A DNA stretch of 64,000 bases from Eledone cirrhosa (taxonomy: Eukaryota), in contig OZ024752.1 of assembly GCA_964016885.1 (NCBI GenBank), forward strand, positions 4,960,001 to 5,024,000. The letters are read 5' to 3'. The notes beneath the pieces are model-generated. The model ran no database searches. It worked only from the letters and a program-made list of their open reading frames with translations, and had not been told where the DNA came from. Positions within the stretch are counted from its first letter, which is position 1. Each line of letters opens with the position of its first letter. Position numbers and translations under genes: made by a program. Positions 893 through 49,652 of this stretch are shown here, piece after piece.

Positions 893-1093
893 TAACGAAG
901 GAAGTGTGGTAAGGAATCAGGTGGACCATAACACACCAGAGTACTCAATACTTAGGGTAGTAAAGTGGGTAATAGGAAAAGAGTCAGGACCCCGACAGCT
1001 GAGCTCTGGCTGTTTCGACAGCTAGATCTGAACTAACGATCTAGCTGTTGAAATGGCCGGAGCTCATCCGTCGGGGTCCTCACTCTTTTCCTA
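893..1093 (-). mobile_element. (TA)n-embedded fold-back element, probably Penelope-like pLTR derived (family A, copy 1)
   Basis: Arms 973-1028 / 1039-1093 plus an unpaired tail. (TA)n on both sides. Homologous to 30368-30563. Confidence 0.55.
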
Positions 1094-1263
1094 TATATAT
1101 ATATAAGCAAAGAATCGTTATTTTAATAAATATTTGCTCTACGGTTCTTATATATCTGATATATATTTATCCTTATCGAGCCCTCTTTGGATTTTAGTCT
1201 TCAATTTTATTATTATTACTATATATATATATATTTGGAATATGAAAGGGCTAGGCATTCTGT

Positions 1264-1320
<57 letters not shown>

Positions 1321-2669
1321 GAAATATTTTGTTTAAAATATACTTATATAATTAATTAATATTTATATGAATTAAAATTAATTATCTATTTACATGAAGA
1401 TGAAACTTTCATTAGTATCCTTATGACTCAGTAAGTTGACTATCAGAATATAGGAATTATTAGTACTAGTATTTTATAGACTTCATGGTGCTGAAAGGTT
1501 AAAGGCAACCCTTAAATAAGACATTACAAGTGAGATAATTATATGGAATGTATAATCTAGGTTTGTTATGCTTAAACCATCTTCTCCTAACCATTGCTAG
1601 GTCTGACTGCTTGGTAAAGTGCTAATTAAATCAGTGGAATTTGCATGTGTATGTATGTATGTGTGTGTGTGTTTGCTTATGTGAGAGTGTGTGTGCTTAT
1701 ATATATGTGTTTTGTATGGTTGTGTGTGTATTTTTGTGTGAGTGTATGTGCTTATATATGTGTTTTGTATGATTGTGTGTGCTTATATATGTGTGTTTTG
1801 TATGGCTGTATGTGTGTTTGGTTAGGCAGTATAAGAAGCCCTGCCATAAAAAGGATCCACAATTGTAACCAATGAGGGTCATAATCAAATTCAATGAACA
1901 ATCATAAGCATGTGTTTGGTTGTGCTAGCAACATTTGGATGGGGCTACATAGAGCAAGTCAGTACTGAACCAACGCCCACCGATGGCCCAAACAGGCCGA
2001 GAAGGTCTGTATCCCATTTATGTCATCACACAAACTGTTGGGTCCTCCTGCATGTGTACGTAGGATTTGAAGGGTGAGGTGTGTATATAACTGTGTATGT
2101 TGATGCAATATGGCTGAATGGTTAAGAAGTTTGCTTCAGTATCATTGGATGATGGGTTCAATCCCATTGTATGACATCTTGGGCAAGTGTCATTCCTTGG
2201 GTTAACCTATGTATTATGAATTATATTGAAGTAGACAAAAATTGTTTGGAAGCCCATTAAATGGATTTTACCTGTAAGTTAAAAGATTAGCCTTGTTACA
2301 CACTGTCATGCTGAATCTCCCTGAGAGTTATGTTAAGGGTACACATGTCTGTGGAATGTTCGGCCATTTGTCCGTTAATTTCAAGAGCTGGCTGTTCTGT
2401 TGACAGATCTACTGGAACATCAGTGAAACCAACAAAGATACATTCCTTTCCTCTCTGTGTAGCTTTGTGTGTGTCTATATATTTCTGTGGGGTTGCATAA
2501 CTGTGTATATTTGGTTGTGTATATCTATGTGTGTGTGTGTGTATGTTTGGTATGTGTATATATACGTTTGTGTATGTATGTGTTGTCTATATATTTGTGT
2601 GTGTGTGTGTGTGTGGTTGCATATCTGTATGTCTGATTGAGTAGAACTGTTTGATCAACTTAGTCTTCC

Positions 2670-3730
2670 CCACTACCACTACAACCACCCCCACAACCAT
2701 AGTCACCACCACCACCACCACAACCATAGTCACCACCACCACCACCACCACAACCATAGTCACCACCAATACCATCACGGCCATCACCATCACAACCATA
2801 GTCACCACCACCACCACCACAACCACCACCACCACCACCACCACCATCACGGCCACCACCACCACGGACACCACCACCACAACCATAGTCACCACCAATA
2901 CCATCACCATCACCACAACCATAGTCACCACCACCACCACCACCACCATCACTATCACCACCACCACCACCACCACCACTATCACTATCACCACCACCAC
3001 CACCACCACCACCACCACCACCACTATCACTATCACCACCACCATCACGGCCACCACCACCACGGACACCACCACCACAACCATAGTCACCACCAATACC
3101 ATCACCATCACCACAACCATAGTCACCACCACCACCACCACCACCACCATCACCACCACCACCACCACCATCACCACTATCTCCACCACCACCTAATACA
3201 CCAACTTTCACCTCTAACCTCTGTCACTTACAGAATTAAAAACCAATTTTGTTATATCACTTTCTGGTTATAATCACTGCTGTTGTTGTTGCTACTACTA
3301 CTACTACTACTACCACCACTGCCACTACTCCTACTACTATCACTGCCACTACCACTACTACTACTGCTACCATCACCACTAACACTACTACAACCACCAC
3401 TACTATCACAACTGCTACAGCTATATGAATACTACCACTGCCACTACCACCACCACCACTACCACTGCTACCACTATATGATTAGTACCACTACAAGTGC
3501 TACTACTACTACCAGCACTGCCACCACTGCTACTACTACCACTATTACAACACTACAACCACCACCATCATCACAACTGCTACCATTATACTACCATCAC
3601 CACCACCACCACCACCAACTACTACCACGACCATTACAACTGCTACCACTATACCACCACGACTACTAATACTACTAACACTGCTATTACCACTACTACT
3701 GCTACTATTACTACTACTACTACTACTGAA
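2670..3730. repeat. (ACC)/(ACT) trinucleotide-derived low-complexity repeat
   Basis: Poly-Thr/Val/Gly ORFs in several frames. Confidence 0.9.
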
Positions 3731-3923
3731 TTCCAGTTAGTGTTGTTGTCATTAATATTTGAATGGTTGCCAATGACAACAGAAATATAAATATGTAATT
3801 TTAAAAGGGGGTTTGAAAGGTTAACATTTTCTCTAAAAACTGAAGAAAATATAAAATAAAACAAAACACAAACAAAAGGCCGTATACAACATTGATTAGT
3901 TTTATGCATTAACCTCCAACCTA

Positions 3924-6900
3924 CTACCACTCTAACTCCTGCACATGGTCCATCTACTCTTTACCTCCCATCCCACTACCACTCTAACTCCTGCACATGG
4001 TCCATCTACTCTTTACCTCCCATCCCACTACCACTCTAACTCCTGCACATGGTCCATCTACTCTTTACCTCCCACCCCACTACCACTCTAACTCCTGCAC
4101 ATGGTCCATCTACTCTTTACCTCCCATCCCACTACCACTCTAACTCCTGTACATGGTCCATCTACTCTTTACCTCCCATCCCACTACCACTCTAACTCCT
4201 GCACATGGTCCATCTACTCTTTACCTCCCACCCCATTACCACTCTAACTCCTGCACATGGTCCATCTACTCTTTACCTCCCACCCCATTACCACTCTAAC
4301 TCCTGCACATGGTCCATCTACTCTTTACCTCCCACCCCACTACCACTCTAACTCCTGCACATGGTCCATCTACTCTTTACCTCCCATCCCACTACCACTC
4401 TAACTCCTGCACATGGTCCATCTACTCTTTACCTCCCACCCCACTACCACTCTAACTCCTGCACATGGTCCATCTACTCTTTACCTCCCATCCCACTACC
4501 ACTCTAACTCCTGCACATGGTCCATCTACTCTTTACCTCCCACCCCACTACCACTCTAACTCCTGCACATGGTCCATCTACTCTTTACCTCCCACCCCAC
4601 TACCACTCTAACTCCTGCACATGGTCCATCTACTCTTTACCTCCCACCCCACTACCACTCTAACTCCTGCACATGGTCCATCTACTCTTTACCTCCCACC
4701 CCACTACCACTCTAACTCCTGCACATGGTCCATCTACTCTTTACCTCCCACCCCACTACCACTCTAACTCCTGCACATGGTCCATCTACTCTTTACCTCC
4801 CACCCCACTACCACTCTAACTCCTGCACATGGTCCATCTACTCTTTACCTCCCACCCCATTACCACTCTAACTCCTGCACATGGTCCATCTACTCTTTAC
4901 CTCCCACCCCATTACCACTCTAACTCCTGCACATGGTCCATCTACTCTTTACCTCCCACCCCACTACCACTCTAACTCCTGCACATGGTCCATCTACTCT
5001 TTACCTCCCATCCCACTACCACTCTAACTCCTGCACATGGTCCATCTACTCTTTACCTCCCACCCCACTACCACTCTAACTCCTGCACATGGTCCATCTA
5101 CTCTTTACCTCCCATCCCACTACCACTCTAACTCCTGCACATGGTCCATCTACTCTTTACCTCCCACCCCACTACCACTCTAACTCCTGCACATGGTCCA
5201 TCTACTCTTTACCTCCCACCCCACTACCACTCTAACTCCTGCACATGGTCCATCTACTCTTTACCTCCCACCCCACTACCACTCTAACTCCTGCACATGG
5301 TCCATCTACTCTTTACCTCCCACCCCACTACCACTCTAACTCCTGCACATGGTCCATCTACTCTTTACCTCCCACCCCACTACCACTCTAACTCCTGCAC
5401 ATGGTCCATCTACTCTTTACCTCCCATCCCACTACCACTCTAACTCCTGCACATGGTCCATCTACTCTTTACCTCCCATCCCACTACCACTCTAACTCCT
5501 GTACATGGTCCATCTACTCTTTACCTCCCATCCCACTACCACTCTAACTCCTGCACATGGTCCATCTACTCTTTACCTCCCATCCCACTACCACTCTAAC
5601 TCCTGCACATGGTCCATCTACTCTTTACCTCCCACCCCATTACCACTCTAACTCCTGCACATGGTCCATCTACTCTTTACCTCCCACCCCATTACCACTC
5701 TAACTCCTGCACATGGTCCATCTACTCTTTACCTCCCATCCCACTACCACTCTAACTCCTGCACATGGTCCATCTACTCTTTACCTCCCACCCCACTACC
5801 ACTCTAACTCCTGCACATGGTCCATCTACTCTTTACCTCCCATCCCACTACCACTCTAACTCCTGCACATGGTCCATCTACTCTTTACCTCCCATCCCAC
5901 TACCACTCTAACTCCTGCACATGGTCCATCTACTCTTTACCTCCCACCCCACTACCACTCTAACTCCTGCACATGGTCCATCTACTCTTTACCTCCCATC
6001 CCACTACCACTCTAACTCCTGTACATGGTCCATCTACTCTTTACCTCCCATCCCACTACCACTCTAACTCCTGCACATGGTCCATCTACTCTTTACCTCC
6101 CATCCCACTACCACTCTAACTCCTGCACATGGTCCATCTACTCTTTACCTCCCACCCCATTACCACTCTAACTCCTGCACATGGTCCATCTACTCTTTAC
6201 CTCCCACCCCATTACCACTCTAACTCCTGCACATGGTCCATCTACTCTTTACCTCCCATCCCACTACCACTCTAACTCCTGCACATGGTCCATCTACTCT
6301 TTACCTCCCACCCCACTACCACTCTAACTCCTGCACATGGTCCATCTACTCTTTACCTCCCATCCCACTACCACTCTAACTCCTGTACATGGTCCATCTA
6401 CTCTTTACCTCCCATCTCACTACCACTCTAACTCCTGCACATGGTCCATCTACTCTTTACCTCCCATCCCACTACCACTCTAACTCCTGCACATGGTCCA
6501 TCTACTCTTTACCTCCCACCCCATTACCACTCTAACTCCTGCACATGGTCCATCTACTCTTTACCTCCCACCCCATTACCACTCTAACTCCTGCACATGG
6601 TCCATCTACTCTTTACCTCCCATCCCACTACCACTCTAACTCCTGCACATGGTCCATCTACTCTTTACCTCCCACCCCACTACCACTCTAACTCCTGCAC
6701 ATGGTCCATCTACTCTTTACCTCCCACCCCACTACCACTCTAACTCCTGCACATGGTCCATCTACTCTTTACCTCCCATCCCACTACCACTCTAACTCCT
6801 GCACATGGTCCATCTACTCTTTACCTCCCATCCCACTACCACTCTAACTCCTGCACATGGTCCATCTACTCTTTACCTCCCATCCCACTACCACTCTAAC

Positions 6901-8945
6901 TCCTGCACATGGTCCATCTACTCTTTACCTCCCATCCCACTACCACTCTAACTCCTGCACATGGTCCATCTACTCTTTACCTCCCACCCCATTACCACTC
7001 TAACTCCTGCACATGGTCCATCTACTCTTTACCTCCCACCCCACTACCACTCTAACTCCTGCACATGGTCCATCTACTCTTTACCTCCCATCCCACTACC
7101 ACTCTAACTCCTGTACATGGTCCATCTACTCTTTACCTCCCATCCCATTACCACTCTAACTCCTGCACATGGTCCATCTACTCTTTACCTCCCATCCCAC
7201 TACCACTCTAACTCCTGTACATGGTCCATCTACTCTTTACCTCCCATCCCATTACCACTCTAACTCCTGCACATGGTCCATCTACTCTTTACCTCCCACC
7301 CCACTACCACTCTAACTCCTGCACATGGTCCATCTACTCTTTACCTCCCATCCCACTACCACTCTAACTCCTGTACATGGTCCATCTACTCTTTACCTCC
7401 CATCCCATTACCACTCTAACTCCTGCACATGGTCCATCTACTCTTTACCTCCCACCCCACTACCACTCTAACTCCTGCACATGGTCCATCTACTCTTTAC
7501 CTCCCATCCCACTACCACTCTAACTCCTGTACATGGTCCATCTACTCTTTACCTCCCATCCCATTACCACTCTAACTCCTGCACATGGTCCATCTACTCT
7601 TTACCTCCCACCCCATTACCACTCTAACTCCTGCACATGGTCCATCTACTCTTTACCTCCCATCCCACTACCACTCTAACTCCTGCACATGGTCCATCTA
7701 CTCTTTACCTCCCACCCCATTACCACTCTAACTCCTGCACATGGTCCATCTACTCTTTACCTCCCACCCCATTACCACTCTAACTCCTGCACATGGTCCA
7801 TCTACTCTTTACCTCCCATCCCACTACCACTCTAACTCCTGCACATGGTCCATCTACTCTTTACCTCCCACCCCACTACCACTCTAACTCCTGCACATGG
7901 TCCATCTACTCTTTACCTCCCACCCCATTACCACTCTAACTCCTGCACATGGTCCATCTACTCTTTACCTCCCATCCCACTACCACTCTAACTCCTGCAC
8001 ATGGTCCATCTACTCTTTACCTCCCATCCCACTACCACTCTAACTCCTGCACATGGTCCATCTACTCTTTACCTCCCACCCCATTACCACTCTAACTCCT
8101 GCACATGGTCCATCTACTCTTTACCTCCCACCCCACTACCACTCTAACTCCTGCACATGGTCCATCTACTCTTTACCTCCCATCCCACTACCACTCTAAC
8201 TCCTGCACATGGTCCATCTACTCTTTACCTCCCATCCCACTACCACTCTAACTCCTGCACATGGTCCATCTACTCTTTACCTCCCATCCCACTACCACTC
8301 TAACTCCTGCACATGGTCCATCTACTCTTTACCTCCCATCCCACTACCACTCTAACTCCTGCACATGGTCCATCTACTCTTTACCTCCCACCCCACTACC
8401 ACTCTAACTCCTGCACATGGTCCATCTACTCTTTACCTCCCATCCCACTACCACTCTAACTCCTGCACATGGTCCATCTACTCTTTACCTCCCACCCCAC
8501 TACCACTCTAACTCCTGCACATGGTCCATCTACTCTTTACCTCCCACCCCATTACCACTCTAACTCCTGCACATGGTCCATCTACTCTTTACCTCCCATC
8601 CCACTACCACTCTAACTCCTGCACATGGTCCATCTACTCTTTACCTCCCATCCCACTACCACTCTAACTCCTGCACATGGTCCATCTACTCTTTACCTCC
8701 CACCCCACTACCACTCTAACTCCTGCACATGGTCCATCTACTCTTTACCTCCCATCCCACTACCACTCTAACTCCTGCACATGGTCCATCTACTCTTTAC
8801 CTCCCATCCCACTACCACTCTAACTCCTGCACATGGTCCATCTACTCTTTACCTCCCACCCCACTACCACTCTAACTCCTGCACATGGTCCATCTACTCT
8901 TTACCTCCCATCCCACTACCACTCTAACTCCTGTACATGGTCCAT
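3924..8945. repeat. 52-bp minisatellite, ~96 copies
   Basis: Unit CTACCACTCTAACTCCTG(C/T)ACATGGTCCATCTACTCTTTACCTCCCA(C/T)CCCA with 52-nt periodicity (e.g. 3931 to 3983). Confidence 0.97.
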
Positions 8946-9459
8946 CCTGCATTCACTCCCACCATACTACCACTCTTAACCCTTTTGTTACCTATCTGGC
9001 CAAAACCAGTTCTGGTTCTCTCAATTAAAGTCCTTAACATCAGTATGTTTGCCCATACTGAGCAATTGAATGTATAATTATATTCTCATTTGAACAGAAA
9101 GAGGTGAGAGAATTCTGGCTGGATATGGCTGGTTTAAATACTAAAGGGTTAAATTAAAATCTTCTAATTTTATATAAGAACCTTATATTAAGTTAACTAT
9201 CTTAGTAATGAAATAATTAATAACTTTAATAAATCCCTCGAAATTCTTAATTAATTAATTGAAATAGAGTGAGTTTCATTAGAAATATAGTGTTTTTTGC
9301 TGTGGTCACTAAATAAATAAACCCTGAGTCAAAGAAAATCTGTGTATAGTTGCTTGACCTACTAGAAATATCTCCAATCTCTATATAGTTGCTTAATCTG
9401 CTAGTATAGCTGAAATTATTAAGTATTTCATTACTAAGATAGTAACTTAATGTAAGGTT

Positions 9460-9493
<34 letters not shown>

Positions 9494-9496
<3 letters not shown>

Positions 9497-9978
9497 GATA
9501 TTAAACAAATGGAAACTATATTTATAAAACCATATTTATTTCGTTATATATATTTCTGGGATATCATATTAAAAATATGGTATGCCTTCCTCAGACAAAA
9601 TACAATACATAAGCTGTTTTATAAATAATTTTTTGACATACCTTATAATAATAATGCAACTTCCATTTAAAAAGTTGATTTCAACTTCCATTTAAAAAGT
9701 TGATTTCAACTTTTTAAATGGAAGTTGCATTATTATTATAAGGTATGTCAAAAAATGATTTATAAAACAGCTTATGTATTGTATTTTGTCTGAGGAAGGC
9801 ATACCATATTTTTAATATGATATCCCAGAAATATATATAACGAAATAAATATGGTTTTATAAATATAGTTTCCATTTGTTTAATATCGTAAACCTACTCC
9901 AGAAACTGTTGAGTGCTTTTATATCAGTTATAAAATATTTACTCGTTGTAACCCAATAATTTTAAATAAAACTTTTGC
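9494..9978 (+). mobile_element. (TA)n-embedded fold-back element with hammerhead-like core (family B)
   Basis: Near-perfect ~190-bp arms 9494-9890, CTGAGGA at 9790 ... GAAA, tail ACTCC...TTGAGTGCT, flanked by (TA)n. Confidence 0.6.
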
Positions 9979-10066
<88 letters not shown>

Positions 10067-12302: not shown

Positions 12303-12468
12303 ATCCGTTGCTATGGAGAAGATAGAAAAGATAATTGTAGTCTTGCCACAAACTCATCAGTACGCCGAGTTCTTATTGAGCGCTTAAATCCCTCAACCAC
12401 CTACATGTTACAGATAGCAGCAGTGACAAACAAAGGCACAGGAACATGGAGCCAAAAGTTCTACATGG
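12303..12468 (+). CDS. robo: Robo-family receptor exon: C-terminal half of the FN3 domain
   Basis: tttttctctacaccAG acceptor and GTATGT donor at 12469. Phase 0 to 1. IRCYGEDRKDNCSLATNSSVRRVLIERLNPSTTYMLQIAAVTNKGTGTWSQKFYM contains the FN3 L.P.T.Y...AA.T..G.G..S motif and is in frame with the previous exon. Confidence 0.92.
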
Positions 12469-13336
12469 GTATGTATAAAGACAACACTTCTCTCCATGCT
12501 TGCAAATGTGGTTATGTATTTTTTCTATGCTACATGCATCTATTTTAACCATGTATTTTGGGATCAATAACCTCATTGGACAACATTTTACATGTAACAA
12601 GAGATTTGTGTACGTGAGCAGACAAGAATATCACTAGGGATTTTTATTCAAAATCATTAGTTTATTGATTTCCTTTTTTCAACATATATATGGTTGAGAA
12701 AATAGTACTCAATACTGAAGTAGAGTTTTAATATTCATTAAGAACTTTCTGATGACCTTGCCATAAACAGGCAAAACTCCAGAGTAACAAGACTCACTAT
12801 TTAGTCTAAATAAAATGAATGAAAACACACACACGTGTGTGTGTGTATTTATGTGAACAGTAAATGAATAAATAACACAGGGCAATGCTACAGTACAATG
12901 GAGATATGCAAAAAGTAAACAGAAACAACAAAGCAAACAATACAATGCAATGAAGAAATATATTTGTTTAATGGTTTATATAGTATATATTTCTTTGACG
13001 CTTTATATAGTACATATATATATATATATTTTATAATCTACAGTTCCCTCTACCAAAGATGAGAACAGTGATTATTGATCCTGGCTGTACTACATACACA
13101 CAAAGCATTCAACAATACTCCTACTGACATTATAATATATGGATCACACAATGAACATTACTATTTCAATTATGACAGGGTTAGAATTGAGGTAGTTTTG
13201 GTTGTAGTTTCTAGCACATTGAGTAGCTCCATATAGGCTTCCTCGTTTTCTTCATATTATAACAACTAATATTTTCTCTCTTGTTTAAAAATGCTGCTGT
13301 TGATGATAAAGACATATTTCTACTGTTTCATTTCAG

Positions 13337-15056: not shown

Positions 15057-15088
<32 letters not shown>

Positions 15089-15932: not shown

Positions 15933-15964
<32 letters not shown>

Positions 15965-19127: not shown

Positions 19128-21620
19128 TAGCATAACGCAAGAATGTACTGCGAGATGAACAAATAAAAATTAATACACAATGCCAAATCGCTTTTCCTAT
19201 GGTTAATCAGGAAGCGCGTCCCACAGGAAGGTGCCAACCTGAGATCAAAAAGTCCTCCTCTGGAACAAACTCTTCTCCAATTATCGACTTGGATGGTCAC
19301 TTGATCGGGGATTGCCGCAACTCCAGCCCTCCAGATCCACCACCCAAACCACCTCAAAAAGAAAAACCTAAAAGGATGAAATGGACCCGAGAAGAGTATA
19401 AAGAAGTAATATATGCATATTACTATGCATTAGGTAAGCCATCACAAGACAGACACACTTTAAACTCCTACAAAATCTGGAAAACTCGGAATCAAGCTAG
19501 CAGACGTGATATGGATGGAAATAAGTTGGCAAATGTAAGGAGGTATATCTTCAGAAATAATAGACTCACAGACACTGAACTAACTGCGATCAAGTAGGCT
19601 GTGGAGAATGACATAAATATAAATGATGAAAGAACTGAAGAATCTCCTGGAGATAGTAACCAGTCACAAGTCTTTACTGAAAGACCTCCATCTGACCAAA
19701 TCACAAATAGGTTTGTAGAAATGAGAAGCCCTATTGAACCCACTGAAAATAACCAGGAGAGGGACTTAGAAACAGTAATTGAAAACCAAACATCTGCTGA
19801 AGAACACAGGGAGACTATGAAGGAATTAAAGCAAAAAATACTGAATGAGCTTGCAGTAGTAAAACATTCTAGTATAAATGTTAGAGAACCACTTCAAAAA
19901 CTCCCAAATACAATCCAAAATAGAAAACAAATAATGATTGGTAATTCTGTGACAAAAGAAATCATAGAAGAACTAGAACCTGATCTTACTGAGTTAAATG
20001 AAATCATTTATGCATCTGCTAGAGTAATTGAAACAAGTTGTTTACCTCCAAAAAAACAAAAAAGTCGAACCTTTGAGGTAAACCGATTTGGAGGAGTAGA
20101 ATTGAAAAGGAGATTGACGTAATGAGAGGAGAAATATCTTTATTGAGTGAGTTAACTGCTGGAAATGATATAAGATCCAAGAAGGTAAGAAAGCTAAAGA
20201 GAAAATATGGACTGTCTTCTAGAGAAGCAATAGTTTCAACAAAAGAATCTCTGAAACAAAAAGTCCAAGTAAAAGCCCAACGAATTCGTAGATTTGACAC
20301 CAAAGTCCGTAAGCTACTGACCTGTAATAGGATGCACCACCCAAAAGCAGATGTGGATCGTCTTTACCTTCCTAGAACTCAAGGAGGCCGTGGCCTGATC
20401 CAATTTGAACTTGCTTACAAGACCACCATCATTGGACTGGCCAAATACCTTGAAACAACTAACGACTGTATGCTGAAACTTGTTGAAAAGCATGAGAGAA
20501 GTAAGAAGCTTCATTCTATCTTGAAGGAGAGCAAAAAAATATGCTACTGATCTCATGCTTGATACCCAGGCTGGACAGACTAAAGAAACTGTTGCAACTG
20601 ATGCTGCTAGCCACATAAAAGCACAGGCAAAAGCAAATGGACAAGGACAATTAGCATCAAATTGGGAGCAGAAACCTCTGCATGGCAAATAGGTGGCCCA
20701 TAGCAAACAAGCTGATGTTGACCAAAAGCACACCCATCAGTGGCTACGTAGTTCATGGCTAAAGGCGGAGAGTGAAGGCTTCATCTTAGCTGCCCAAGAT
20801 CAAAGCTTATTGACTCATAATTACCAGGCCAATGTGATGAGAAACGGAATAAACCCAATGTGCCAATTCTGCAATGCTGAGGTTGAAACACTTAGTCTCT
20901 GGATGTAAAGTTTTAGCACCAGTAGAATACAAATATAGACATGACAGAGTTGGCCAATATCTACACTGGGTAATATATCGGCATTACAAAATCAAAGCGG
21001 AAGACAAGTGGTACAATCATCACCCTGAGGCTGTAACTGAAGGAGAAAAAGTAACAATTCTCTGGGACTTTCCTGTACATAATGACAGGACCATAAAAGC
21101 AAATAGACCTGACATCATTGTAAAAGATCAACATAACAAGGTCTGTTTATTGATAGATATGAGCATCACATGTGATCACAATATCGCTGCAAAAGATTTG
21201 ACAAGCTACGAAAATATAAAGATCTGCTTATTGAAATTGAGAAAATGTGACACCTCAAGGCCGTTACAATACCAGTGATTGTGGGAGGACTGGGAATGAT
21301 CAAGAAAGGAACAGAACAGTATTTGCGAATGATTCCTGATTTACCCTCTCTGCACGAGGTGCAAAAAATTGTTTTCACTGACACTGCACACGTATTGAGA
21401 AGAGCACTATCTCTGTAAGATTGATATCCCTCCTTGTATTTACATATCCATATGCACATGTGTATATATGTATACTGGTTTTTTTTTAAATTATAATCAA
21501 TGTGCTGTATTAACTGGCTTACCAATGCACACTGTGAATTTATTTGCCCTAGGTGTCAGGAAGACACCCGGTATGTATCTCAGAAACAATAATGAAAGAA
21601 AATAAAAATGATAATAATAA
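19128..21620 (+). mobile_element. R4/Dong-like RLE non-LTR retrotransposon, internally deleted and frameshifted
   Basis: N-terminal KWTREE...YY motif, HPKADVDRLYLPR..GGRGL, CCHC knuckle CQFC....ETLKHLVSGC, RHD motif, WDF.V..DRTIKANRPDII...LLIDMS (PD-(D/E)xK nuclease). Ends in (TAA)n. No RT core. Confidence 0.85.
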
Positions 21621-29384: not shown

Positions 29385-29782
29385 ATAGTATAAAAACGAA
29401 AAATCAGCGATGCGTCTGGGCTCAGTTTATTGCGTGTTACAATTGTTTCGCCGGCAGGTAGCTCGAGACATGATCACTGTATGGATCTGGCTGATTCTAC
29501 GGCTGCAGGTTCCTCCAGACACAGGTAGTTAGTTCGGAGCTAATTTTCTCACAGAGAAAATTAGCTCCGAAGGAACCTGCAGCCATAGAATCAGCCAGAT
29601 CCATACAGTGATCATGTCTTGAGCTACCTGCCGGCGAAACAATTGTAACACGCAATAAACTGAGCCCAGATGCATCACTGATTTTTCGTTTTTATACTAT
29701 CCACACTCCACTCTGTATGAATATTGAGTGCTAATTTTGGCATACCGCCTATGGAAGCACCATAGCTACCATTATACACGAG
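29385..29782 (+). mobile_element. (TA)n-embedded fold-back element (family C)
   Basis: Arms 29385-29550 / 29554-29700, GAAAC and AATAAA in the arm, tail ACTC...ATTGAGTGCT. Confidence 0.6.
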
Positions 29783-30367: not shown

Positions 30368-30563
30368 AATGAAGGAAATGTGGTAAGGAACCAGGTGGAC
30401 CATAACGCACCAAAGTACTCAATACTTGAGGTAGTAGAGTGGGTAATAGGAACCAGTAAGACCCCGACAGCTGAGCTCAAGCCGTTTCGACGGCTAATTC
30501 TGGACTCCAGAATTAGCCGTCGAAACGGCTTGAGCTCAGCTGTCGGGGTCTTACTGGTTCCTA
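30368..30563 (-). mobile_element. (TA)n-embedded fold-back element (family A, copy 2)
   Basis: Perfect ~58-bp arms around GGA-C-TCC. The tail read on the minus strand has ACTC...ATTGAGTACT. Confidence 0.6.
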
Positions 30564-30811
30564 TATTATATATATATATATATTATATATATCATATATA
30601 TTATATATATTATATATATATTATATATATATTACATATATAATATATATATTACATATATATATATTATATATATATTACATATATATATATATATTAT
30701 ATATATATTATATATTAAGTGTATTGAGTTCAAATCTCAAGCATTCCTTTACAAAGCTCCAAGAAAAGAATATTTCTGAGCCGTGTAATAAATATAAATC
30801 AATATATATAT

Positions 30812-31784: not shown

Positions 31785-31787
31785 GTG

Positions 31788-34561: not shown

Positions 34562-34617
<56 letters not shown>

Positions 34618-35305: not shown

Positions 35306-35339
35306 ATATATGTATATAATGTATGTATATGTGTATATG

Positions 35340-35394
<55 letters not shown>

Positions 35395-36208
35395 ATAAAT
35401 TATCGAGATTCGCATTTCGGCCCACGAAATAATGAAAAACAACCTCCGAGATGTGCGGCAAGTGCTCAATGATTCAGAAGAACCAGAGCTATAACAAACG
35501 TTAAACGCCAAACACACTGAGACGATGGTTAAACAATCATTCACGTAGCCAAAAAAACGATCAAGTAATTCGGGTATTGAAAATTTACCCGGACCCCTGG
35601 AAGGTTAGTAAAATCCAGTATATGGGTTTCTGTGGCTCCTAAATCAAGTAATGTCCGCTTACATATATAATGTCAGGCTTCTGGTAAGATGATTGAACAA
35701 GGTAGCCACTTTCTCAACAGGTTTTAGTTCAATGTTAATACAAGGACTGACTATTGCTGACCCCACGTGGGGATCAGCAAGGGAGGCAACCCCTATATCA
35801 GGTGAATATACATGTATATATATATATATACACACATATACATACATTATATATATATATAGAGACATGTGGATTGGCAGTATCGGTAGAGGGTCAGCGC
35901 TATGCTTTGACTCATAGAGTTACAGCCCTTGCCATTCTGAGTTTGAATCCCGCCGAGGTTAACCTTGCCTTTCATCCTTACGGGGTCGATAAAATAAAGT
36001 ACCAGTAATGCACTGGGTAATTGCTGGCCTTGTGCCAAAAAGTAAAAACAATTATATATATATATTTATTATATATATATGTATGTATATAATTGTTTCT
36101 ACTTTTGGCACAAGGCCAGCAATTATCCCAGTGTATTACTGGTACTTTATTTTATCGACCCTGTAAGGATGAAAGGCAAAGTTAACCTCGGCGGGATTTA
36201 AACTCAAA

Positions 36209-36720
36209 TCATATTTTGAAGCTGGCAGAGAACCTCAGCCCTACAGAGGTCAACGCTCCAAACCACCACAGTGCCACCATTGTCATCAGCGAGTTTGATG
36301 ACAATGTCATCGCGATGCCAAAGGTTGCAGAGAGCTCAGCCTGTGTGCTGCTAGAGTGACGAGAAGGCTGGTGGAAACGGAACCGGTTGACAGTATGCCA
36401 GCAAGTATCGACTAAGGAGTCGAGGGTGCTGAACCATCCAGAGCTCAGCGTCCAATGTGATTGCCAGCGACTGAGACGAGTGAAGTCATCTGTCTGTGTC
36501 GATAATGGCGTGTTGTGAAAAAAAAAAGCTTTCAGCTTTAATCAACGGAAGAACCCTTCAATATCGGCACATGTACGGAACTCGTTGCAGGTAAATGTGG
36601 TTGGTATAAACGCAAACCACAGGCGAGGAGGGAGTGCTCAGCTTGGGAGAGTGGTAGGTCCTGGGGTATGGTGACTACAGTGCAGGGACGTGAGGGAGTG
36701 AAAGGGGCAGAAGCGATAAG
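36209..36720 (-). mobile_element. Penelope-like element RT N-terminal fragment (decayed)
   Basis: Minus-strand translation gives LPLSQAEHSLLACGL and DDIVIKLADDNGGTVVVW...RAEVLCQL, resembling the PLE motifs LS..E..LL.KGL and IVIKPADKGGAVVV. Confidence 0.65.
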
Positions 36721-37477
36721 GTGGTTGGGCAAAGCATATGCTGATTCAGTGGTGGGGAGAAGAAAGGGGGTGGTAGGTGAGAGGATAGAGGGATATATAT
36801 ATCTCTGTTTTGCATGGAAAGATAAATGGTTATTGTGAACTGATTTCTAAAAATTACTTATTCATTTATTCAATCAAATAATTTCTGTGGGAGATTGGGA
36901 AAACTTTGTTTCACAATTGCTTTTTTTGATTTCATTCTTTAACTCTTTCAATCTCAACCATTCCTATTCCACCTCTGGTCAGTCTAGGATTCAAATACTT
37001 TTGTTTTAAAATATGAACTGGTTGTGTAGGTGTCATGACAAAAAGCACCCAGCTTTCACTGTAAAGTGGTTGTGTAGGGGTCACAACAAAAAGCACCCAG
37101 CCCACCCTGTAATTGGTTGTGTGGGTGTTACAACAAAAAGTGCCCATCCCACACTGTAAAGTGGTCATGTAGGTCACGACAAAAAGCACCCAGCACACAC
37201 TATAAATGTGGTTGCCGTTAGGAAGGGCATCCTGCTGTAGAAACCTAACCAGAAACAGTTCTATATGAGCAAGACACAGTCACCTGACCCAACTTGCCTC
37301 AAATAGGACAACCTGTCTAACTCATGCTAGCATGGATAGTGGATGTTAAACAAGGACGATGATGATGATGTTCAAATTTCTGAGAAGAGGAATCATCACA
37401 GTTATGCACTGGTTTATTCTGACTAGTATCTTCATGCATTCCAAACCCTAATCTTTTTTCATGTGTCTGTTATATTT

Positions 37478-39920: not shown

Positions 39921-40029
39921 ACTTTAAACTAGACTTAGATTCAGTAGATATTTAAGTTTGTTTACTTCTATACTATTGTATGGCATTCTTGAGAATGTAT
40001 TTGGATGGTAGTGTTTGTTTCTATTTTAC

Positions 40030-41380: not shown

Positions 41381-41405
41381 CTGCTTTTGTTTCATTATTT
41401 TCTGG

Positions 41406-41590
41406 TGGATTGGCAGTATCGGTAGAGGGTTGGACGCCATGCTTTCTAGCACAGTTACGTCCCTTTAAAGTCTGAGTTCAAATCCCGCCGAGGTTGACTT
41501 TGCCTTTCATCCTTACGGGGGTCGATAAAATAAAGTACCAGTAATGCACTGGGTAATTGCTGGCCTTGTGCCTAAAGTAGAAACAATTAT
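41406..41590 (+). mobile_element. Second tRNA-derived SINE family with Deu/Nin-like core (copies ~18961-19119-, 35870-36052+, 36090-36208-, 38876-39057-, 49103-49250-, 53704-53883+ and fragments)
   Basis: GAGTTCAAATCC B box followed by gccgaggttgactttgcctttcatccttacggggtcgataaaataaagtaccag. Confidence 0.8.
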
Positions 41591-41961
41591 TTTCTCTGTT
41601 TATGATCTGTGAAATTTAAGATGGTGAAAAATACATTGAATGGTTCTTTAGTTTTATTTTAACATTCATAAAAAGAAATTATCTTCATCTTCTCCGTCTA
41701 CACCTTTCTCTGTCATCATCATCATTGATATCATCATTGTCATCATTATCAATCATCATTATCATCATCATCATCATCATGAATCATCCTAATGATCATC
41801 ACCATCAATATATTATCAATCATCTATATCATCATCATCAACCTCACCATATTCATCATTACCCTCGTCATCATCATCACCATCACCATCACCACCATCA
41901 TCACCTTCATCATCACCTTCATCATCATCATCATCATCACCCTCGTCATCAACTCCATTCT

Positions 41962-41996
<35 letters not shown>

Positions 41997-42059
41997 ATAC
42001 AACTTTGGTGGTAATCTTTATACACAGTTAGAAACAGTTGTCAGCTGTTTCCTTTCTAT

Positions 42060-42420
42060 TGGTGGCGGCGGCGGCGGTGGTGGTGGTGGTGGCGGCGGCG
42101 GCGGCGGCGGCGGTGGTGGTGGTGGGGGTGGGGGTAGGAGAGGGTGGTGGTGGTGGTGGTGGTGGTGGTGGTAGGAGAGGGTGGTGGTGGTGGTAGGAGA
42201 GGGTGGTAGGAGAGGGTGGTGGTGGTGGTAGGAGAGGGTGGTAGGAGAGTGTGGTGGTGGGGGTGGGGGTAGGAGAGGGTGGTGGTGGTGGTGGTGGTGG
42301 TGGGGGTAGGAGAGGGTGGTGGTGGTGGTGGTGGTGGTAGGAGAGTGTGGTGGTGGGGGTGGGGGTAGGAGAGGGTGGTGGTGGTGGTGGTAGGAGAGGG
42401 TGGTGGTGGTGGTGGTAGGA
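42060..42420 (+). repeat. G-rich (GGT/GGC)n-GGAGAGG repeat, G-quadruplex prone
   Basis: Multiple GG to GGGGG runs on the sense strand. Confidence 0.8.
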
Positions 42421-42959
42421 TTGTGTGGTAAATAGAAACCCTTGAGAACCATGACATTTATAAGAACTTTGGGGAAAAAAATGTTCCCCTTTGCAGCAAA
42501 GAAATGTGTTTTATGTACAATGAATTGTCCAATCTTTATTTGCATATGCTCAACACACACACACACATACACACATACACACACACACATACACACATAC
42601 ACACACATATATATATATACATTAATATAGTGGTTAGAGCATTAGCTCTGCAATCGAAAGGTTGTGAGTTCAATTCTCAGACCGGGTGATGTGTTGTTTC
42701 CTTGAGCAAGACACTTTATTTCACATTGCTCCAGTTTACTCAGCTGTAGAAATGAGATGATAGGACTGGGGTCCCTATCATTCCACTGCAAAGTGGTCGT
42801 GGAGGTGCCACGGCAAAAAAGCACCCAGCACTCACTGTAAATGAGGTTGGTGTTAGGAAGGGCATCCAGCTGTAGAAATCAAGCCAGAATCAGTTCCCGT
42901 CCCACCCTGGCAAGCAGGGAAAAAGCGGACGTAAAATGAAATGATGATGATGATATAAT

Positions 42960-43240
42960 ATTCTGAGGGGGCCAAACTTCTCAAATATCGCTCGCTCTCC
43001 GACAGGTTTGCGGTCGTACCCCTGGAAGTGGAGACTTCTGGTGTCCTCGGCCCCAGGGCTACCTCCTTACTCACCACTATAGGCGCTGAGCTGGCCAGCC
43101 GCAGGTGTGAGCCCCGCGAGTTGGAATGGCTTTTCTAGCGCGTCTCCCTTGCCGTCGTCCGGGGAAACGCCTTCTCCATTCTGTCCGCCGGGGCTGTGGG
43201 TGGGCCCCATCGCGTACCAATACATTAGTTAAATACCATT
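42960..43240 (+). mobile_element. CRE-like RLE non-LTR retrotransposon 3' end
   Basis: SEGAKLLKYRSLSDRFAVVPLEVETSGVLGPRATSLLTTIGAELASRRCEPRELEWLF*RVSLAVVRGNAFSILS fits the RLE C-terminal K..KY / P..VET.G / RGNA pattern. Confidence 0.65.
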
Positions 43241-43299
43241 CTTTCATCTGATATAACACCAATATATATTTTTACTTAATATATATGGATGTATGTCAT

Positions 43300-43688
43300 T
43301 ATATATATAGATGATGATGATATATATGTATACCTATGATTATGTATACATATATATGGGTGTGTGTATATTCATATATATATACATATATATGTGTGTG
43401 TGTGTGTATATATATGTGTGTGTGTGTATATATGTATGTATATATGTATGTATATATATATATGTATGTATGTATATATATATGTATGTAAATATATATA
43501 TCTATGTATATATGTAAGTATATATAAATGTATATATGTATGTATATATGTATGTGTATATATGTATGTATATATGTGTGTATATATATATATATGTATG
43601 TATATATATATATATACACATACATATATACATACATATATACATATATATATACTTACATATATGTATATATGTATATATATATATA

Positions 43689-43752
<64 letters not shown>

Positions 43753-43790
43753 TATATGTGTATATATATATATATATATATGTGTATATA

Positions 43791-43863
<73 letters not shown>

Positions 43864-43927
43864 GTATATATATACATATACATATACATATATATATATA
43901 TATATATATACATACACATACACATAT

Positions 43928-43994
<67 letters not shown>

Positions 43995-44045
43995 AATATA
44001 TATATATATATATACATACATATATATATATATATATACATACAA
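43300..44045. repeat. Long (TA)/(TG)/(CA) compound microsatellite (similar tracts at 18060-18370, 31692-32162, 44465-44890)
   Basis: Direct observation. Confidence 0.95.
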
Positions 44046-44461
44046 TTTAATTCATCTATTTTGTGCTGTAGTTAAGTTTTCATGATATTATCTTAAATTT
44101 TATAAGACTTTTCTATCATGAATTAAACAACTGATCCTTCTCAGCTTCAAAACAACTCCAAATCATCTTGTCTTGATAAATAGTTGTAGTTTTGCCATTT
44201 TCTTCTCTTCTCTTCTCTATATATTTTTGTCTTTATCACATTTTATTTTATTTTCATTTCATAGATTTCTTCATAAAGATTTTGACAATTCTTCCTTAAC
44301 GTTTATTTAACATCACGATATCAATATAACTCAGACGTGAAGTAGCATCGTATATTTTGTTGTTATTTTGGTGAATAAAGAAGAATGACGACAACATGAT
44401 TAAGTCTTTGAAAGTTTCAACTTCTTTCGTTGTTTATCTATTGGTTTATCTTATATATCTT

Positions 44462-44512
<51 letters not shown>

Positions 44513-44756
44513 CCGTGTATTTATATTTGTGTATCTATCTATATATGTATGGGTGTGTGTGTGTGTATGTTTATATTTGTGCATGTGTGCGTATATATAT
44601 GCGTATGTATATGCTTGTCTGTATATGTGTATGTATATGTGTTTATGTATATATATGCGTGCATATATATTTATATATGCACGCATATATATACATACAG
44701 ACATATACATACATACCTGTGCTTTCAATAAATACAATACATATATATATATATAT

Positions 44757-44808
<52 letters not shown>

Positions 44809-45077
44809 ATATATGTATGTGTGTCTATATATATATATATGTGTGCATATATAATTATACATACATATATATATATGTATATATATGTATTGCATGTACT
44901 GAAAGCACAGGTATGGGTTTGTAGCTAAGGAGTTTGCTCCACATCCACATTGTTTTCGGTTCACTCACAAAGTGTATCACTATATCTTTTACTATAGTCT
45001 ACTAACAACTAATGTTTAGAGAGAAAATTCAATAGATGGAAACTGGAAGGAATCAGGATTTGTATTTGTGTGTGTGT

Positions 45078-45169
<92 letters not shown>

Positions 45170-45176
45170 ATATATT

Positions 45177-45222
<46 letters not shown>

Positions 45223-47508
45223 AATTATATATAGGAGGCACATGGCTTATTGGTTAGAGCATTGGCCTTGCAATCGAAAGGTTGTGAGTTCAATTCTCAG
45301 ACCAGGAGAGTGTTGTTTCCTTGAGCAAGACACTTTATTTCACATTGCTCCAGTTTACTCAGCTGTAGAAATGAGATAATAGGGACTGGGGTCCCTATTA
45401 TTCCGCTGCAAAGTGGTCATGGAGGTGCCACGGGGAAAAAAAGGTACCCAGCACTCACTGTAAATGACGTTGGCATTAGGAAGGGCATCCAGCTGTAGAA
45501 ATCAAGCTAGAATCAATTCCCATCCCACCCTGGCAAGCAGGGAAAAAGTGGATGTAACATGATGATGATGATGATGATATTATACACATATTTATATATA
45601 TATATATATATTATATATATATAAATAGCTTAAGGCAGACTCTATGCTTTTTAGAACAATCTAACAGAAATGTTTGAATTAAAATCATTTTCAGATTTTT
45701 ACCCTTGAATGTTTTGAGTTCAAATCCCACCAAGCTCTGAAGTTTACTTGAACCTTCATTCCTTTGGGATATCAACATTTAGCTTTTTGCCTCTTTAACA
45801 TGCATAACACAAATACACATGACATATGGGAGTTGAATCAACTATACCTCAAACTTATCATTTTCTCACTATGAGCTGGTTCAATAGTAATGCTAAAGGG
45901 TTCAGGACTCTTCCCCTACAACCCTCTCAGGAATAAGTGGGCGAAGAAGAAGAAAAAGAAGAAATCCTAGAACATACAACAAAGACTAAAAGTTTTAACT
46001 AGAATTGAACACATGATCCGTGGATTCAGTGGATTCACAGACCTAGACGACCATAACCACATAGACACTACTACTATTGTTAGTATTACTACTGAAAGTA
46101 AGTTTAGAAATGCTTGCCTTTAATAGATCTCAAATGATTCAGTGTTTAGTAATGGGTGATATGATTTGTTGGGTTAATCTGCTTTCTTTGACAGTAATCT
46201 TTATAAATTGCTCCCAAATCATTGAACCAACAATTGTTTGCAACATAGCCATTACCAGTTGCAGTCTTAATGTATTCTTGTCTTTATTTTCTTATTCTTC
46301 TGTCCAAAGAAAACCATCATGCCACCTTTCCCATTACTTATGTAGTTAGTGGTTTGATAAAGGGTAGTTGGCTTGTGTTGTTGTTGTTGATGATGTTTTG
46401 TTGTTTTTTTTTCTTTTGCTTTTTTTCTTCTTTTAGTTTTGCTTATATTCTTTTATTTATTTTTTTTTTTTTTAAATAATCTTATAACAATCAGAATAAG
46501 TTATGGTGAAACTATATATATATACACTTTTTCTTCCGACATTACTAAACATTACTTTACAATAATCAAACACACAATGACTTTAAGAATTTTTTTGGTT
46601 TGTTTTTAGAATCTATTTTAAGTATCCAGTTTTTCCATTCTAACATTATTGGGAGAGTTTTAAAGAATTTGGATATATGCCCTCGGCATGGCTTCATGTA
46701 GCAAGGTGTTTGATTTTGATTAATCAATCAATTGATTCATTGATTAACTAATTTTGCTGACCACACCCAAGCACGAGTACAGGCATGTGGCCTAGTGGTA
46801 AGGGTGTTGGACTTACGATCATAATGTTGTGGGTTCGATTCCTGGGCTGCGTTGCATGTTCTGTTCTTGAGGAAAAAACAATTCATTTCATGTTGTTCCA
46901 GTATACTCAACTGAAAATGATTACCAGCAATAGCTGGGAAGTTTAAGCCTGTGATGGACTGGTGTCCTGTCCTGTCCAGGGGGGAATCTTGTGCTCTCAG
47001 TCCCTTCACACCTTGAAACTGGGATAAGCACCAGCCTAACGTACCTTCTGGCTTAAGACAGACTTTAGACACCCAAGCATGAAGTAGAGAGGCCAACAGC
47101 ATCCTGGACACATGTCTTCTACCATAGACTGCAGTTGATCCAAGCCTCCTCCTCCTTCTTCTTCCTGGATAGAAGTGATAGGTATAGATCCCAAAACACT
47201 GACACTCAAAGTGGAGATAATGAAGTAGCATGGGAAGTGAAGGGAAACTGTGCTGGAAAGGACATACCGAAGCCATGCAAACAGAAAAATGGACGTAGAA
47301 GGATGATGATGACTGTGTGTATGTGTGTATATATGTGTGTATGTGTGTGTGTGTATATATGTGTATGAGCTGGACATGGAAAAATGGACATAGAAAGATG
47401 ATGTCAATATATGTGTGGGTTTATATATGTATGTATATATATATATATATAAACCCATGCTAGCATGGAAGATAGACGTTAAACGTTGATGATGATGATA
47501 TATATAAT

Positions 47509-47822
47509 TGGTGTTGGATGATTAAAGCGTCCGTATGCGGTAGACCATTTGAGCACTCGATGCTCTCATAGAGCAGAGTAAGATATCACAGAGAAAGAGA
47601 GAATCAGTGTTGCGACGAATCTAATTTATTGGACATATTACAATCGTTTCTCTGGCAACCAGCTCTAGGCACAATCAATGTGATGATCGAACCTGACTCT
47701 GAAAATCGCAAGGTCCTCAGATACGTCTTTGATTCTACGAAGCAGATTTTCCTAGGAAACGATTGTAATATGTCCAATAAATTTGATTCGTCGCAACACC
47801 GATTCTCTTTTTTTCTGTAATA
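47509..47822 (-). mobile_element. (TA)n-embedded fold-back element with hammerhead-like core (family D)
   Basis: Arms ~47585-47650 / 47755-47822. The minus strand reads CTGAGGA...GAAAC...AATAAA...ACTC...GAGTGCT. Confidence 0.6.
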
Positions 47823-48158
47823 TATATATGTATATATATATATGTGTATGTGTGTGTGTAAATATTCTATGTGTGTCTATAAATGCGTGTGTGTGTGTGT
47901 CTCATTGATTTTAAATCTGATCTGGCTGAGACTCAGCTATTTCTGATTCTCTGATGAGAGCAAAGATCATTTATGAGTGTCATAAAAGTTACAACATCAG
48001 ATTGATTTAGTGTACATAGTCTTAGTGAATCAATGACTGGTTTATGTATCAAGTTTAGTGTCATTTTAAGGAGTGTAACATATATCTGAGCTCATATAAA
48101 ATAGCACAAATTGATCTTAGATTTCAAATATAGTCACGGGATTTTTAATATTATTTCA

Positions 48159-48783
48159 CCTATATATATAAATCTGAGGATGTGTGTGTGTGTGTGAATC
48201 CCTAAAACTCGAGAAGTACCCAACCGAATTTTTTCAAACTTTACATGTGTATTACTTATGTTTCAGGGAGTGTTATGCACACAATTTAACTTTTTCATCC
48301 CCTAGGGCCCGCATTAGGTGAAAAACTGCGTTTTTTCAGCTTTTTAGGGGTTTTTTTAGGCGCTACGTCAGACCGATTTCCTTGAAATTGTAACTATGTA
48401 TTAGTCAGTCTCTTCTTCATACCGTGAGCAAAGAAAGTCCAACTTTTTTATGGCCTAGGGCCCGCATTAGGTGAAAAACTTCATTTTTTCAGCTTTTTAG
48501 GGCTTTTTTGAGGTGTTACGTCTAGCCGATTTTCCCGAAATTTCAAGGCATATTATGCACATAAAAAAAATTCATTTTGTTGATCCCCTAGTGCCCGCAT
48601 TAGGTGAAAACCTGCATTTTTCCTGCTTTATCGAGGAAAATCTTAAAGATTATCCAGCCATCAGAGTATTCGGTTTATTTTCTTTACATATTGTCCAGAC
48701 ATGCAGTTTTTCCACGATTAGGTCTGTTGGCGGCCCGCGTTCCACATTACCTTATCCCGTGCAACGCCGGGTACCACTGCCAG
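48159..48783 (+). mobile_element. Non-autonomous Helitron-like element, copy 2
   Basis: CTATATATATAAA start, (GT)n, three CCTAGGGCCCGCATTAGGTGAAAA-type subrepeats, subterminal hairpin CCCGTGCAACGCCGGG followed by CCAG|T (CTAG-like end). Confidence 0.7.
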
Positions 48784-48894
48784 TATTATATAAATCTTAC
48801 TATATATGTGGGTGTATATGTATAGATATATATGGATGTGTGTATGTATATATAGATGAGTGTGTGTGCATTCATATACGTGTGTGTATGTATG

Positions 48895-48924
<30 letters not shown>

Positions 48925-48925
<1 letters not shown>

Positions 48926-49070
48926 AAGTAAAAGGTAAACAGAAATAACAAAACAAATGGCACAGTATATAGAAGGAATATATTAATTTAATGCTTGAAA
49001 TAGCTGGAAAAGGGTTTTAACGTTTCAGACACTAGTCCTTCATCAGGAGAAAAAGTGAGAAATTAAAGAA
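48925..49070 (-). mobile_element. Penelope-like short repeat with minimal hammerhead ribozyme motif
   Basis: Minus strand CTGATGA-AGGAC-TAGT-GTCT-GAAACGTT. Related degenerate copies at ~50330-50480 (+) and ~24335-24400 (-). Confidence 0.6.
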
Positions 49071-49300
49071 CAATATGTGTATGTATATATAATGATAATA
49101 ATAATTATTTCTACTCTTGGCCCAAGGCCAGCAATTACCCAGTGCATTACTGGTACTTTATTTTATCGACCCCGTAAGGATGAAAGGCAAAGTTAACCTC
49201 GGCGGGATTTGAACTCAAAATGGCAAGGGCCGTAACTCTATGCGTCAAGGATAAAATATTGTAGTTTGCTTGAAGTATTCTATTTTATATATAATATGGG

Positions 49301-49652
49301 AAGTGATATATGTAAGAAGGGTAAAACAATGCAAAATGGGACAGTACAACGAAGGCAATGAAAAATTTAGTAACCTGATAATCTTTGATTTGTTTTTTGT
49401 TGTTTCTTTCATCCTAATATTCCACTTTGAAATTAGATTTCAAAGTGGAATAGACTGGAAGGTTTTTTTTTTTGTTTTTGTTTTTTCTCTGAGAGTTCCT
49501 TATACTCCTCTGACAAAGGAAATTTTAAGTCCCAAAATATTGGGATAAAAGAAACAACAATGAAAAGAAAGATTACCAAGTGACTAACTTTTTTATCACC
49601 TTCAACGTACCGTCCATTTTGCATTGTCTTAGCCTTCTTATATATATCACTT
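49301..49652 (+). mobile_element. Degenerate fold-back element (family E)
   Basis: Diverged inverted arms ~49301-49420 / 49540-49652, with CTGACAAAGG...GAAAC at the right-arm boundary. Confidence 0.45.

Follow-up and report, generated by a model that had tools for sequence, protein, structure and literature searches.

What produces long fold-backs of differing sequence and one architecture in a single genomic region? The 64,000-nt stretch of Eledone cirrhosa DNA considered here (GenBank assembly GCA_964016885.1, contig OZ024752.1, positions 4,960,001 to 5,024,000, forward strand; hereafter the window, with coordinates counted from its first letter) holds such inverted repeats in several families (A to E, Table 1), set in runs of (TA)n, which are abundant in this genome (3.0 Gb). 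An earlier note on the window had taken them for diverse non-autonomous RNAs derived from Penelope-like elements (PLEs), conserved in structure rather than in sequence, with a tail hairpin that might be a signal to the reverse transcriptase (RT). PLEs are the sister group of telomerase RTs, and how they choose their RNA, where they start and how their inverted, one-tailed insertions originate are open questions. We consider it fairly probable that the fold-backs are 5'-truncated, head-to-head ends of Hydra-clade PLEs that halt 3-5 nt before one of two hairpins, and that these hairpins bind the RT-endonuclease and set two starts of reverse transcription.

A bulged hairpin in the tails of fold-backs

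Self-BLAST, folding and a fold-back detector confirmed long inverted repeats in all five families, and four of these are built, as had been described, in the order (TA)n, short arm, apex, long arm, unpaired tail and (TA)n. The tail motif is a bulged hairpin, RCTC-stem-loop-stem-(2 nt)-GAGY-RCT, with a loop of 3 to >60 nt. Its RCTC and GAGY strands, which the earlier note had read as shared by the tails, are present in families A to D at the coordinates given there; family E lacks them and ends in a different tail of ~40 nt. The 2-nt bulge, the covarying upper stem and a second hairpin are features beyond that note.

The hairpin descriptor was derived from the motif in the earlier note and applied to independent sequence, namely 78 ten-kb stretches chosen at round coordinates. 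There a detector that made no use of the motif, asking only for inverted arms with TA at one end and, beyond the other, 35-170 nt leading up to TA, picked out 64 fold-backs. RCTC near the arm end with GAGY downstream was present in 34 of the 64, compared with a mean of 1 and a maximum of 4 in 200 dinucleotide shuffles, and with 1 on the reverse strand. Inside the 4-bp base stem, the upper-stem strands paired best across a 2-nt bulge on the 3' side (41/54 pairs vs 15-24 at bulges of 0, 1, 3, 4 and 5 nt), a score reached in 0/20,000 strand permutations, values that overstate independence given the kinship among families. At position 1 of the base stem in these fold-backs, a sample unselected for pairing, A-T occurred 13 times, G-C 3 times and A-C twice. 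Structure rather than sequence is conserved, as had been proposed. Descriptor and permutation tests stand in place of a covariance model because MAFFT right-justified the variable-loop hairpins. A set of 26 hand-picked hairpins, in which base-stem pairing was a selection criterion and is uncounted as evidence, gave a similar picture: at least two upper pairs formed in 17 at the 2-nt bulge and in 3-4 at other registers (permutation mean 10.2, 7/20,000). Pair types included T-A, C-G, G-C, A-T and G-T.

Across all loci, 18 of 48 clusters passed the descriptor, one being a false arm hit and another a merger of C and D. A strict form of the pattern followed by TA occurred 78 times in 780 kb vs 7 times on the reversed sequence, which extrapolates roughly to the order of 10^5 such ends genome-wide. 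No trace of the motif was found in three non-Hydra coding families or in family E.

Other tails were also seen (L numbers denote loci). Two families carry a GTTC/GAAC variant of the base stem, a double change with the same bulge and upper stem (L171:598-640, L093:9056-9101). A second tail class, with the short motif TGCTTCAAG and then an AC-rich run, is present in family E (49250-49295, minus strand) and two other fold-back clusters (L279:9266-9307, L281:8148-8212). A third class starts ACTC-GTGT and has an upper stem with no GAGY partner (L132:3101-3166, L122:4337-4380, L220:2610-2701); it may be a related signal.

Coding parents of the fold-backs

All five families are dispersed, with first-look candidates numbering 660 (A), 1,393 (B), 1,797 (C), 2,251 (D) and 1,210 (E), of which 40 were scored per family; copies have a fixed 3' end, at (TA)n, and ragged 5' ends. 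Longer copies of A, B, C, D and a tail relic, r1, run into open reading frames (ORFs) for RT and GIY-YIG endonuclease (EN). Judged from sequence, these five are 5'-truncated 3' ends (pseudo-long terminal repeats, pLTRs) of coding Hydra-clade PLEs. The PLE origin suggested by the earlier note is borne out, and PLEs that code for RT and GIY-YIG and end in these sequences were found for each of the five, so that each of these window copies is a truncated stub of a coding family and not one of the non-autonomous RNAs that had been envisaged.

In the family A parent, a 427-aa open RT-EN frame precedes a 1.15-kb untranslated region (UTR) and the hammerhead. This family is very young, since 40/40 listed matches are 100% identical over 301 bp, and is possibly still active. 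The endonuclease was reached in 8 of 20 family B loci, and L170/L210/L004 form one contiguous RT-EN-UTR-tail copy. The C parent (L017+L270) comprises an EN ORF and a 2.1-kb UTR with a tailless end, joined head-to-head to a short tailed copy, while in D one locus (L203) spans EN to tail and another (L197) tail to ORF start. Relic r1 sits after the coding end in L132 and has further longer copies in L070/L273. A further family, that of L127, has the identical type of fold-back with ORF sequence within both arms. Single ORFs with RT and C-terminal GIY-YIG are open for 722 aa in L166 and 619 aa in L167, and were also seen in L231 and L170. Two of these proteins had no Pfam match, and their identity comes from motifs and alignment (6 homologues, 38-40% identical). 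An ORF-first scan tied r1, and also L131, a variant family, to Hydra ORFs; elsewhere the ends of singleton Hydra ORFs mostly broke off at a TA run with no tail reached, and these were uninformative. Walking upstream found no coding parents for relics r2 and r3 or for family E.

Clades were assigned by diagnostic motifs of the proteins, in place of an RT tree with reference PLEs. An RWR motif, of the RWK type, is present in B, C, D and the L127 family. Of these, C and the L127 family also have DKT in place of DKG, and a D copy has DKM. The parents of A, B and r1 and the L127 family share a CxCX5C linker, no CCHH, and CxxC and CxH around conserved E and N; D has the C-terminal part of this linker/EN signature, and one linker cysteine is changed in the C copy. 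Like the Hydra clade, these families insert in (TA)n, which forms both flanks of the inserts and hides any target-site duplication. We also found the inverted 5'-truncated copy with a tail at one end, a tail that passes without a break into the next ORF at its 5' end. Placement in the Nematis clade was rejected in favour of Hydra under the clade definitions of Craig et al. 2021 (PMC8557442).

The remnant at 36209-36720, which the earlier note had set beside the fold-backs, is indeed from a PLE and covers a region upstream of the RT core. Its family is Neptune-type (CX2-5CxxC linker and cysteines inside GIY-YIG), features that A-D lack. It was rejected as an autonomous partner: in 8/9 extended copies a hammerhead is followed by the end of the element at a TA junction, and no hairpin is present; the ninth is interrupted.

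Two hairpins and two end points

Read-through copies of five families hold a second hairpin 68-92 nt past the first: one diverged copy in A, 15/15 loci in B, 4/4 matches in C, ~11/15 loci in D and two copies in the L127 family. The B and D loci were retrieved with a hairpin-containing query; the C pattern required the first four letters of the hairpin and left its 3' half free. An ATG follows hairpin 2 after 14-20 nt in B, C and D.

Aligned to read-through references of ~200 nt, 335 of 343 TA-joined ends lay at most 14 nt 5' of a hairpin. The modal gaps from end to hairpin were 3-5 nt; at hairpin 2 the apparent modes for A (0) and the L127 family (2) reflect BLAST extension across one mismatch, and exact matching gave 3 and 5. 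End points were bimodal in all six families with both arms sampled, and a short TA stretch stood at every end point examined. Among 130 inverted pairs (16 unclassed), one tailed and one untailed arm were paired in 110 of 114, and in 65 of 68 when loci fetched by a tail-bearing query of the same family were left out. With its position next to the ends, the hairpin is likely a candidate binding site that positions the starts of reverse transcription, in line with the suggestion of the earlier note.

A hairpin-free, non-Hydra coding PLE family (L132:6880-7003 and copies) also has two sharp ends, with a 60-nt tail, and is a useful control.

A candidate mechanism and its rivals

We propose that the template would be an uncut or circular RNA with the order hammerhead, site 1, hairpin 1, site 2, hairpin 2 and ATG. 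Two RT-EN units, perhaps a dimer, would sit one on each hairpin and nick opposite strands of a (TA)n run, with priming on the UA bases just 5' of each unit's hairpin. The two cDNAs would extend upstream, often abort early and be joined at their truncated ends to form a fold-back, the one-sided tail of which would be the stretch between site 1 and site 2. For Poseidon_Ac, two internal RT starts that bracket the tail have been measured in vitro, a dimer is predicted, and genomic ends agree with the measured starts (Frangieh et al. 2024, PMC11167929). With its register of 3-5 nt fixed at both end points, the hairpin offers the in vitro assay already in use a well-defined target. On a wider claim our judgement is evenly divided, namely that Hydra-clade PLEs share one duplicated RNA recognition element, kept across the clade in corals, molluscs and echinoderms alike, and that it brings two telomerase-related RT units onto a single RNA and has them prime opposite strands of a (TA)n nick by short template annealing. 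If that is true, PLE reverse transcription has a defined cis-signal, and inverted one-tailed insertion would be explained as programmed double priming.

Several observations weigh against hairpin-directed double priming. The mechanism is read from the geometry of sequences, and Poseidon_Ac primes without target homology, unlike the TA annealing proposed here (PMC11167929). The pairing of one tailed with one untailed arm also holds in a hairpin-free non-Hydra family (6/6 classifiable pairs, within the 114), so the hairpin would be at most the Hydra clade's version of the signal. In B, C and D the second hairpin forms no more than 1-2 upper pairs, in the L127 family it has an insert of ~100 nt, and when the whole leader is folded to minimum energy one or both hairpins are sometimes missing. 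Thirty of the 64 motif-blind fold-backs failed the descriptor, some being other tail classes or false detections, and 9 of the 26 hand-picked hairpins had fewer than two upper pairs at the 2-nt bulge (of these nine, a 1-nt bulge suits three and a 3-nt bulge suits one, two form a single pair, and the last three are unclear). Kinship of the families also inflates the permutation values.

The main rival, which we hold to be unlikely, has the motif working as DNA: the GIY-YIG endonuclease would recognize it in cDNA or donor DNA and cut a few bases 5' of it, so that ends mark cleavage (resolution) and not priming. The tail has been credited to EN-mediated resolution (PMC8557442), the Drosophila virilis tail is required for EN cleavage (as cited in PMC11167929), and the ends here lie in TA, the sequence that the nuclease prefers. 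However, read on the sense strand, the upper stems include 11 G-T/T-G vs 4 A-C/C-A pairs, a better fit to sense-strand RNA, and neither the wide range of loop lengths nor the agreement of Poseidon_Ac genomic ends with measured RT starts favours cleavage. Less likely again is a role of the hairpins in expression or packaging (translational control or ribonucleoprotein assembly), with starts set only by nearby UA stretches annealing to nicked (TA)n. Such a role would suit hairpin 2, which in B, C, D and Hydra-1_Ajap keeps a fixed distance of ~14-20 nt from the ATG downstream, and annealing would suit the TA microhomology at all end points examined; yet the AT-rich leaders are rich in other TA stretches, only 8/343 ends fall away from a hairpin, and the gap from end to hairpin is near constant across unrelated families.

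That the fold-backs are diverse non-autonomous PLE-derived RNAs (retrozyme- or SINE-like) mobilized in trans, as the earlier note had it, now seems very improbable. Continuation into RT-EN ORFs refutes this view for A, B, C, D and r1, and the ragged 5' ends and the run of the tail into the next ORF's ATG also speak against it, even though most window-size copies lack an ORF, parents are missing for r2, r3 and E, and such PLE derivatives exist (PMC8557442; bioRxiv 10.64898/2026.07.22.740005). We give almost no credence to DNA transposons with terminal inverted repeats, or miniature inverted-repeat transposable elements (MITEs), inserting at TA. Long inverted repeats at TA sites are all that recommends them: in place of the fixed symmetric ends that the earlier note had named as telling against its own view, the ends are asymmetric, arms range from ~25 nt to >1 kb and may hold ORF sequence (L127), many copies are one-armed, and the parents encode RT, a linkage to RT-EN that refutes this reading.

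The hairpin and its elements beyond this genome

Inspected by eye in File S7 of PMC8557442, Hydra-2_Amil and Hydra-2_Ajap have a clear hairpin and Hydra-1_Ajap a twin before the ATG; hairpins are imperfect in Hydra-1_Amil and Hydra-1_Crog, and Hydra-1_Obim has none. A clear motif is therefore present in 3/6 published Hydra consensi, coral and sea-cucumber among the carriers. Six 9-mers of the hairpin 3' half had 7 matches in the whole supplement, 4 in Hydra hairpins and 3 in the far larger Naiad and Chlamys files, counts from which line breaks could conceal some. The words 'hairpin' and 'stem-loop' have 0 occurrences in the main text of that paper, and our literature search, with subscription journals and Repbase notes outside its coverage, found no published description of the hairpin. 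The conserved twin hairpin is real and, so far as found, not in print; it stands on known elements of known architecture, in which the pLTR inversion, the tail on one side, the hammerhead and the choice of (TA)n targets had all been described before. It would serve as a structural marker for Hydra-clade ends in genomes, where stubs are easily misfiled as MITEs or unknown repeats.

The Hydra clade as published, a clade of C-terminal EN+ PLEs (PMC8557442), shares the RWK-type, DKT and CxCX5C motifs, the lack of CCHH, canonical hammerheads, (TA)n insertion and the inverted 5'-truncated copy with a one-sided tail. Tails are 62-92 nt here vs 30-40 in that paper, and we found at least six coding families where one octopus Hydra family is listed. 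Poseidon_Ac (PMC11167929) likewise has two internal starts flanking the tail, nicks and extends both target strands of an AT-rich target, and can dispense with hammerhead cleavage. It belongs to another clade, however, and its starts lie within the ORF, in an AC-rich stem-loop, and have no homology to the target; the parts of that paper available to us report no duplicated motif conserved across families. Animal non-LTR retrozymes (bioRxiv 10.64898/2026.07.22.740005) are also short PLE-derived sequences with a type I hammerhead, but are tandem and non-coding, whereas the elements here are dispersed inverted stubs of coding families.

Hammerheads and AATAAA

The earlier note had read hammerhead cores in several families. 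Complete type I hammerheads were recovered by descriptor in B (at 9790, plus strand; stem I 8 bp) and D (at 47720, minus strand; stem I 7 bp), with a variant in the left arm of C. The sequence read as a core at 29385, CTGGAGGA, is private to the window copy, family C having the non-canonical CCGAAGGA in 24/29 copies. Predicted hammerheads of fetched copies have a canonical core in 36/38 (B), 19/21 (D) and 18/23 (L127 family). Window copies of family A (893/30368) are cut within helix II, and 22/23 longer copies have a U3-A8 core, a known PLE hammerhead variant (PMC4209133). The core is decayed in E. An Rfam scan of the window gave 0 hammerheads among 150 of 159 matches listed, mostly microRNA models on microsatellites.

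With published PLE hammerheads (Cervera and de la Pena 2014, PMC4209133), those here share type I topology, a short palindromic helix III, the U3-A8 variant of family A and opposite-strand pairs 100-700 bp apart; they differ in the long helix II inserts of C and D, the non-canonical C core and the hairpins downstream, which the passages of that paper available to us do not mention. AATAAA, reported earlier as shared, lies within 60 nt before the junction in 9/17 motif clusters vs 6.1% of background 60-mers, and is missing from the 893/30368 family. As to a possible polyadenylation signal, the copies inspected showed no poly(A).

Other features of the window

The coordinates of the elements are collected in Table 1. 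Three tail-only relics had been reported near 1135, 30755 and 35460; all are GCTC/GAGC versions of the hairpin, and the one at 30755 is without an upper stem at the 2-nt bulge.

Table 1. Fold-backs, relics and related features of the window.
Feature	Position	Strand	Details
Family A stub, older copy	893..1094	-	Inverted arms 972-1094 (self-BLAST) with hammerhead 3' half; tail 895-971; hairpin 1 at 943-966; coding parent L231
Relic r1, 3' end of sixth coding Hydra family	1103..1220	+	GCTC/GAGC hairpin 1136-1184; ORF-to-tail continuity in L132
Family B fold-back	9494..9978	+	Arms 9494-9890 (self-BLAST); tail 9891-9978; hairpin 1 at 9896-9917; coding parent L170/L210/L004
Family B type I hammerhead	core 9790-9796, predicted cut after 9839	+	
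Extra hairpin-like relic, absent from the earlier note	12704..12726	-	No traced family
Family C fold-back	29385..29782	+	Arms 29385-29700 (self-BLAST); degenerate hammerhead; coding parent L017+L270; read-through copies L290-L293
Family C hairpin 1	29705-29732	+	Two candidate 5' strands, starting at 29705 or 29710
Family A fold-back, young copy	30369..30564	-	Perfect arms 30446-30564 (picked up by detector); hairpin 1 at 30414-30440
Relic r2	30714..30806	+	GCTC/GAGC stem that does not fit the 2-nt bulge; no parent found
Relic r3, 5'-truncated copy of dispersed family	35392..35716	-	Clear bulged hairpin 35461-35489; coding parent not found
Neptune-type PLE fragment	36207..36760	-	Region upstream of RT core; family with CX4CxxC linker and CCHH-type GIY-YIG
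Family D fold-back	47507..47823	-	Arms 47583-47823 (self-BLAST); hammerhead core 47714-47720; hairpin 1 at 47552-47579; parent L203, read-through L197
Family E, old PLE-like fold-back	49250..49652	-	Arms 49301-49652 (self-BLAST); decayed hammerhead; different ~40-nt tail 49250-49295; no hairpin

A fibronectin-III exon lies at 12324-12461 on the plus strand (Pfam fn3, E 3.6e-6), and a motif match inside it, at 12352, was taken as chance. Because of this exon near 12,320-12,460, a large, intron-rich receptor gene probably surrounds the elements, which would lie in its introns. Decayed ORF pieces of a non-LTR retrotransposon, unrelated to the fold-backs, occupy 19136-21278. At 35938-36206, two copies of a dispersed, SINE-like repeat of ~185 bp, which has many copies in the window, are joined inverted at a TA run. 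A homogeneous 52-bp tandem array (~97 units, ~97% identical) extends over 3909-8976. Stubs of differing families were also found nested in each other's flanking (TA)n runs, and clustered, at many loci (e.g., L037, L093, L105, L186 and L225).

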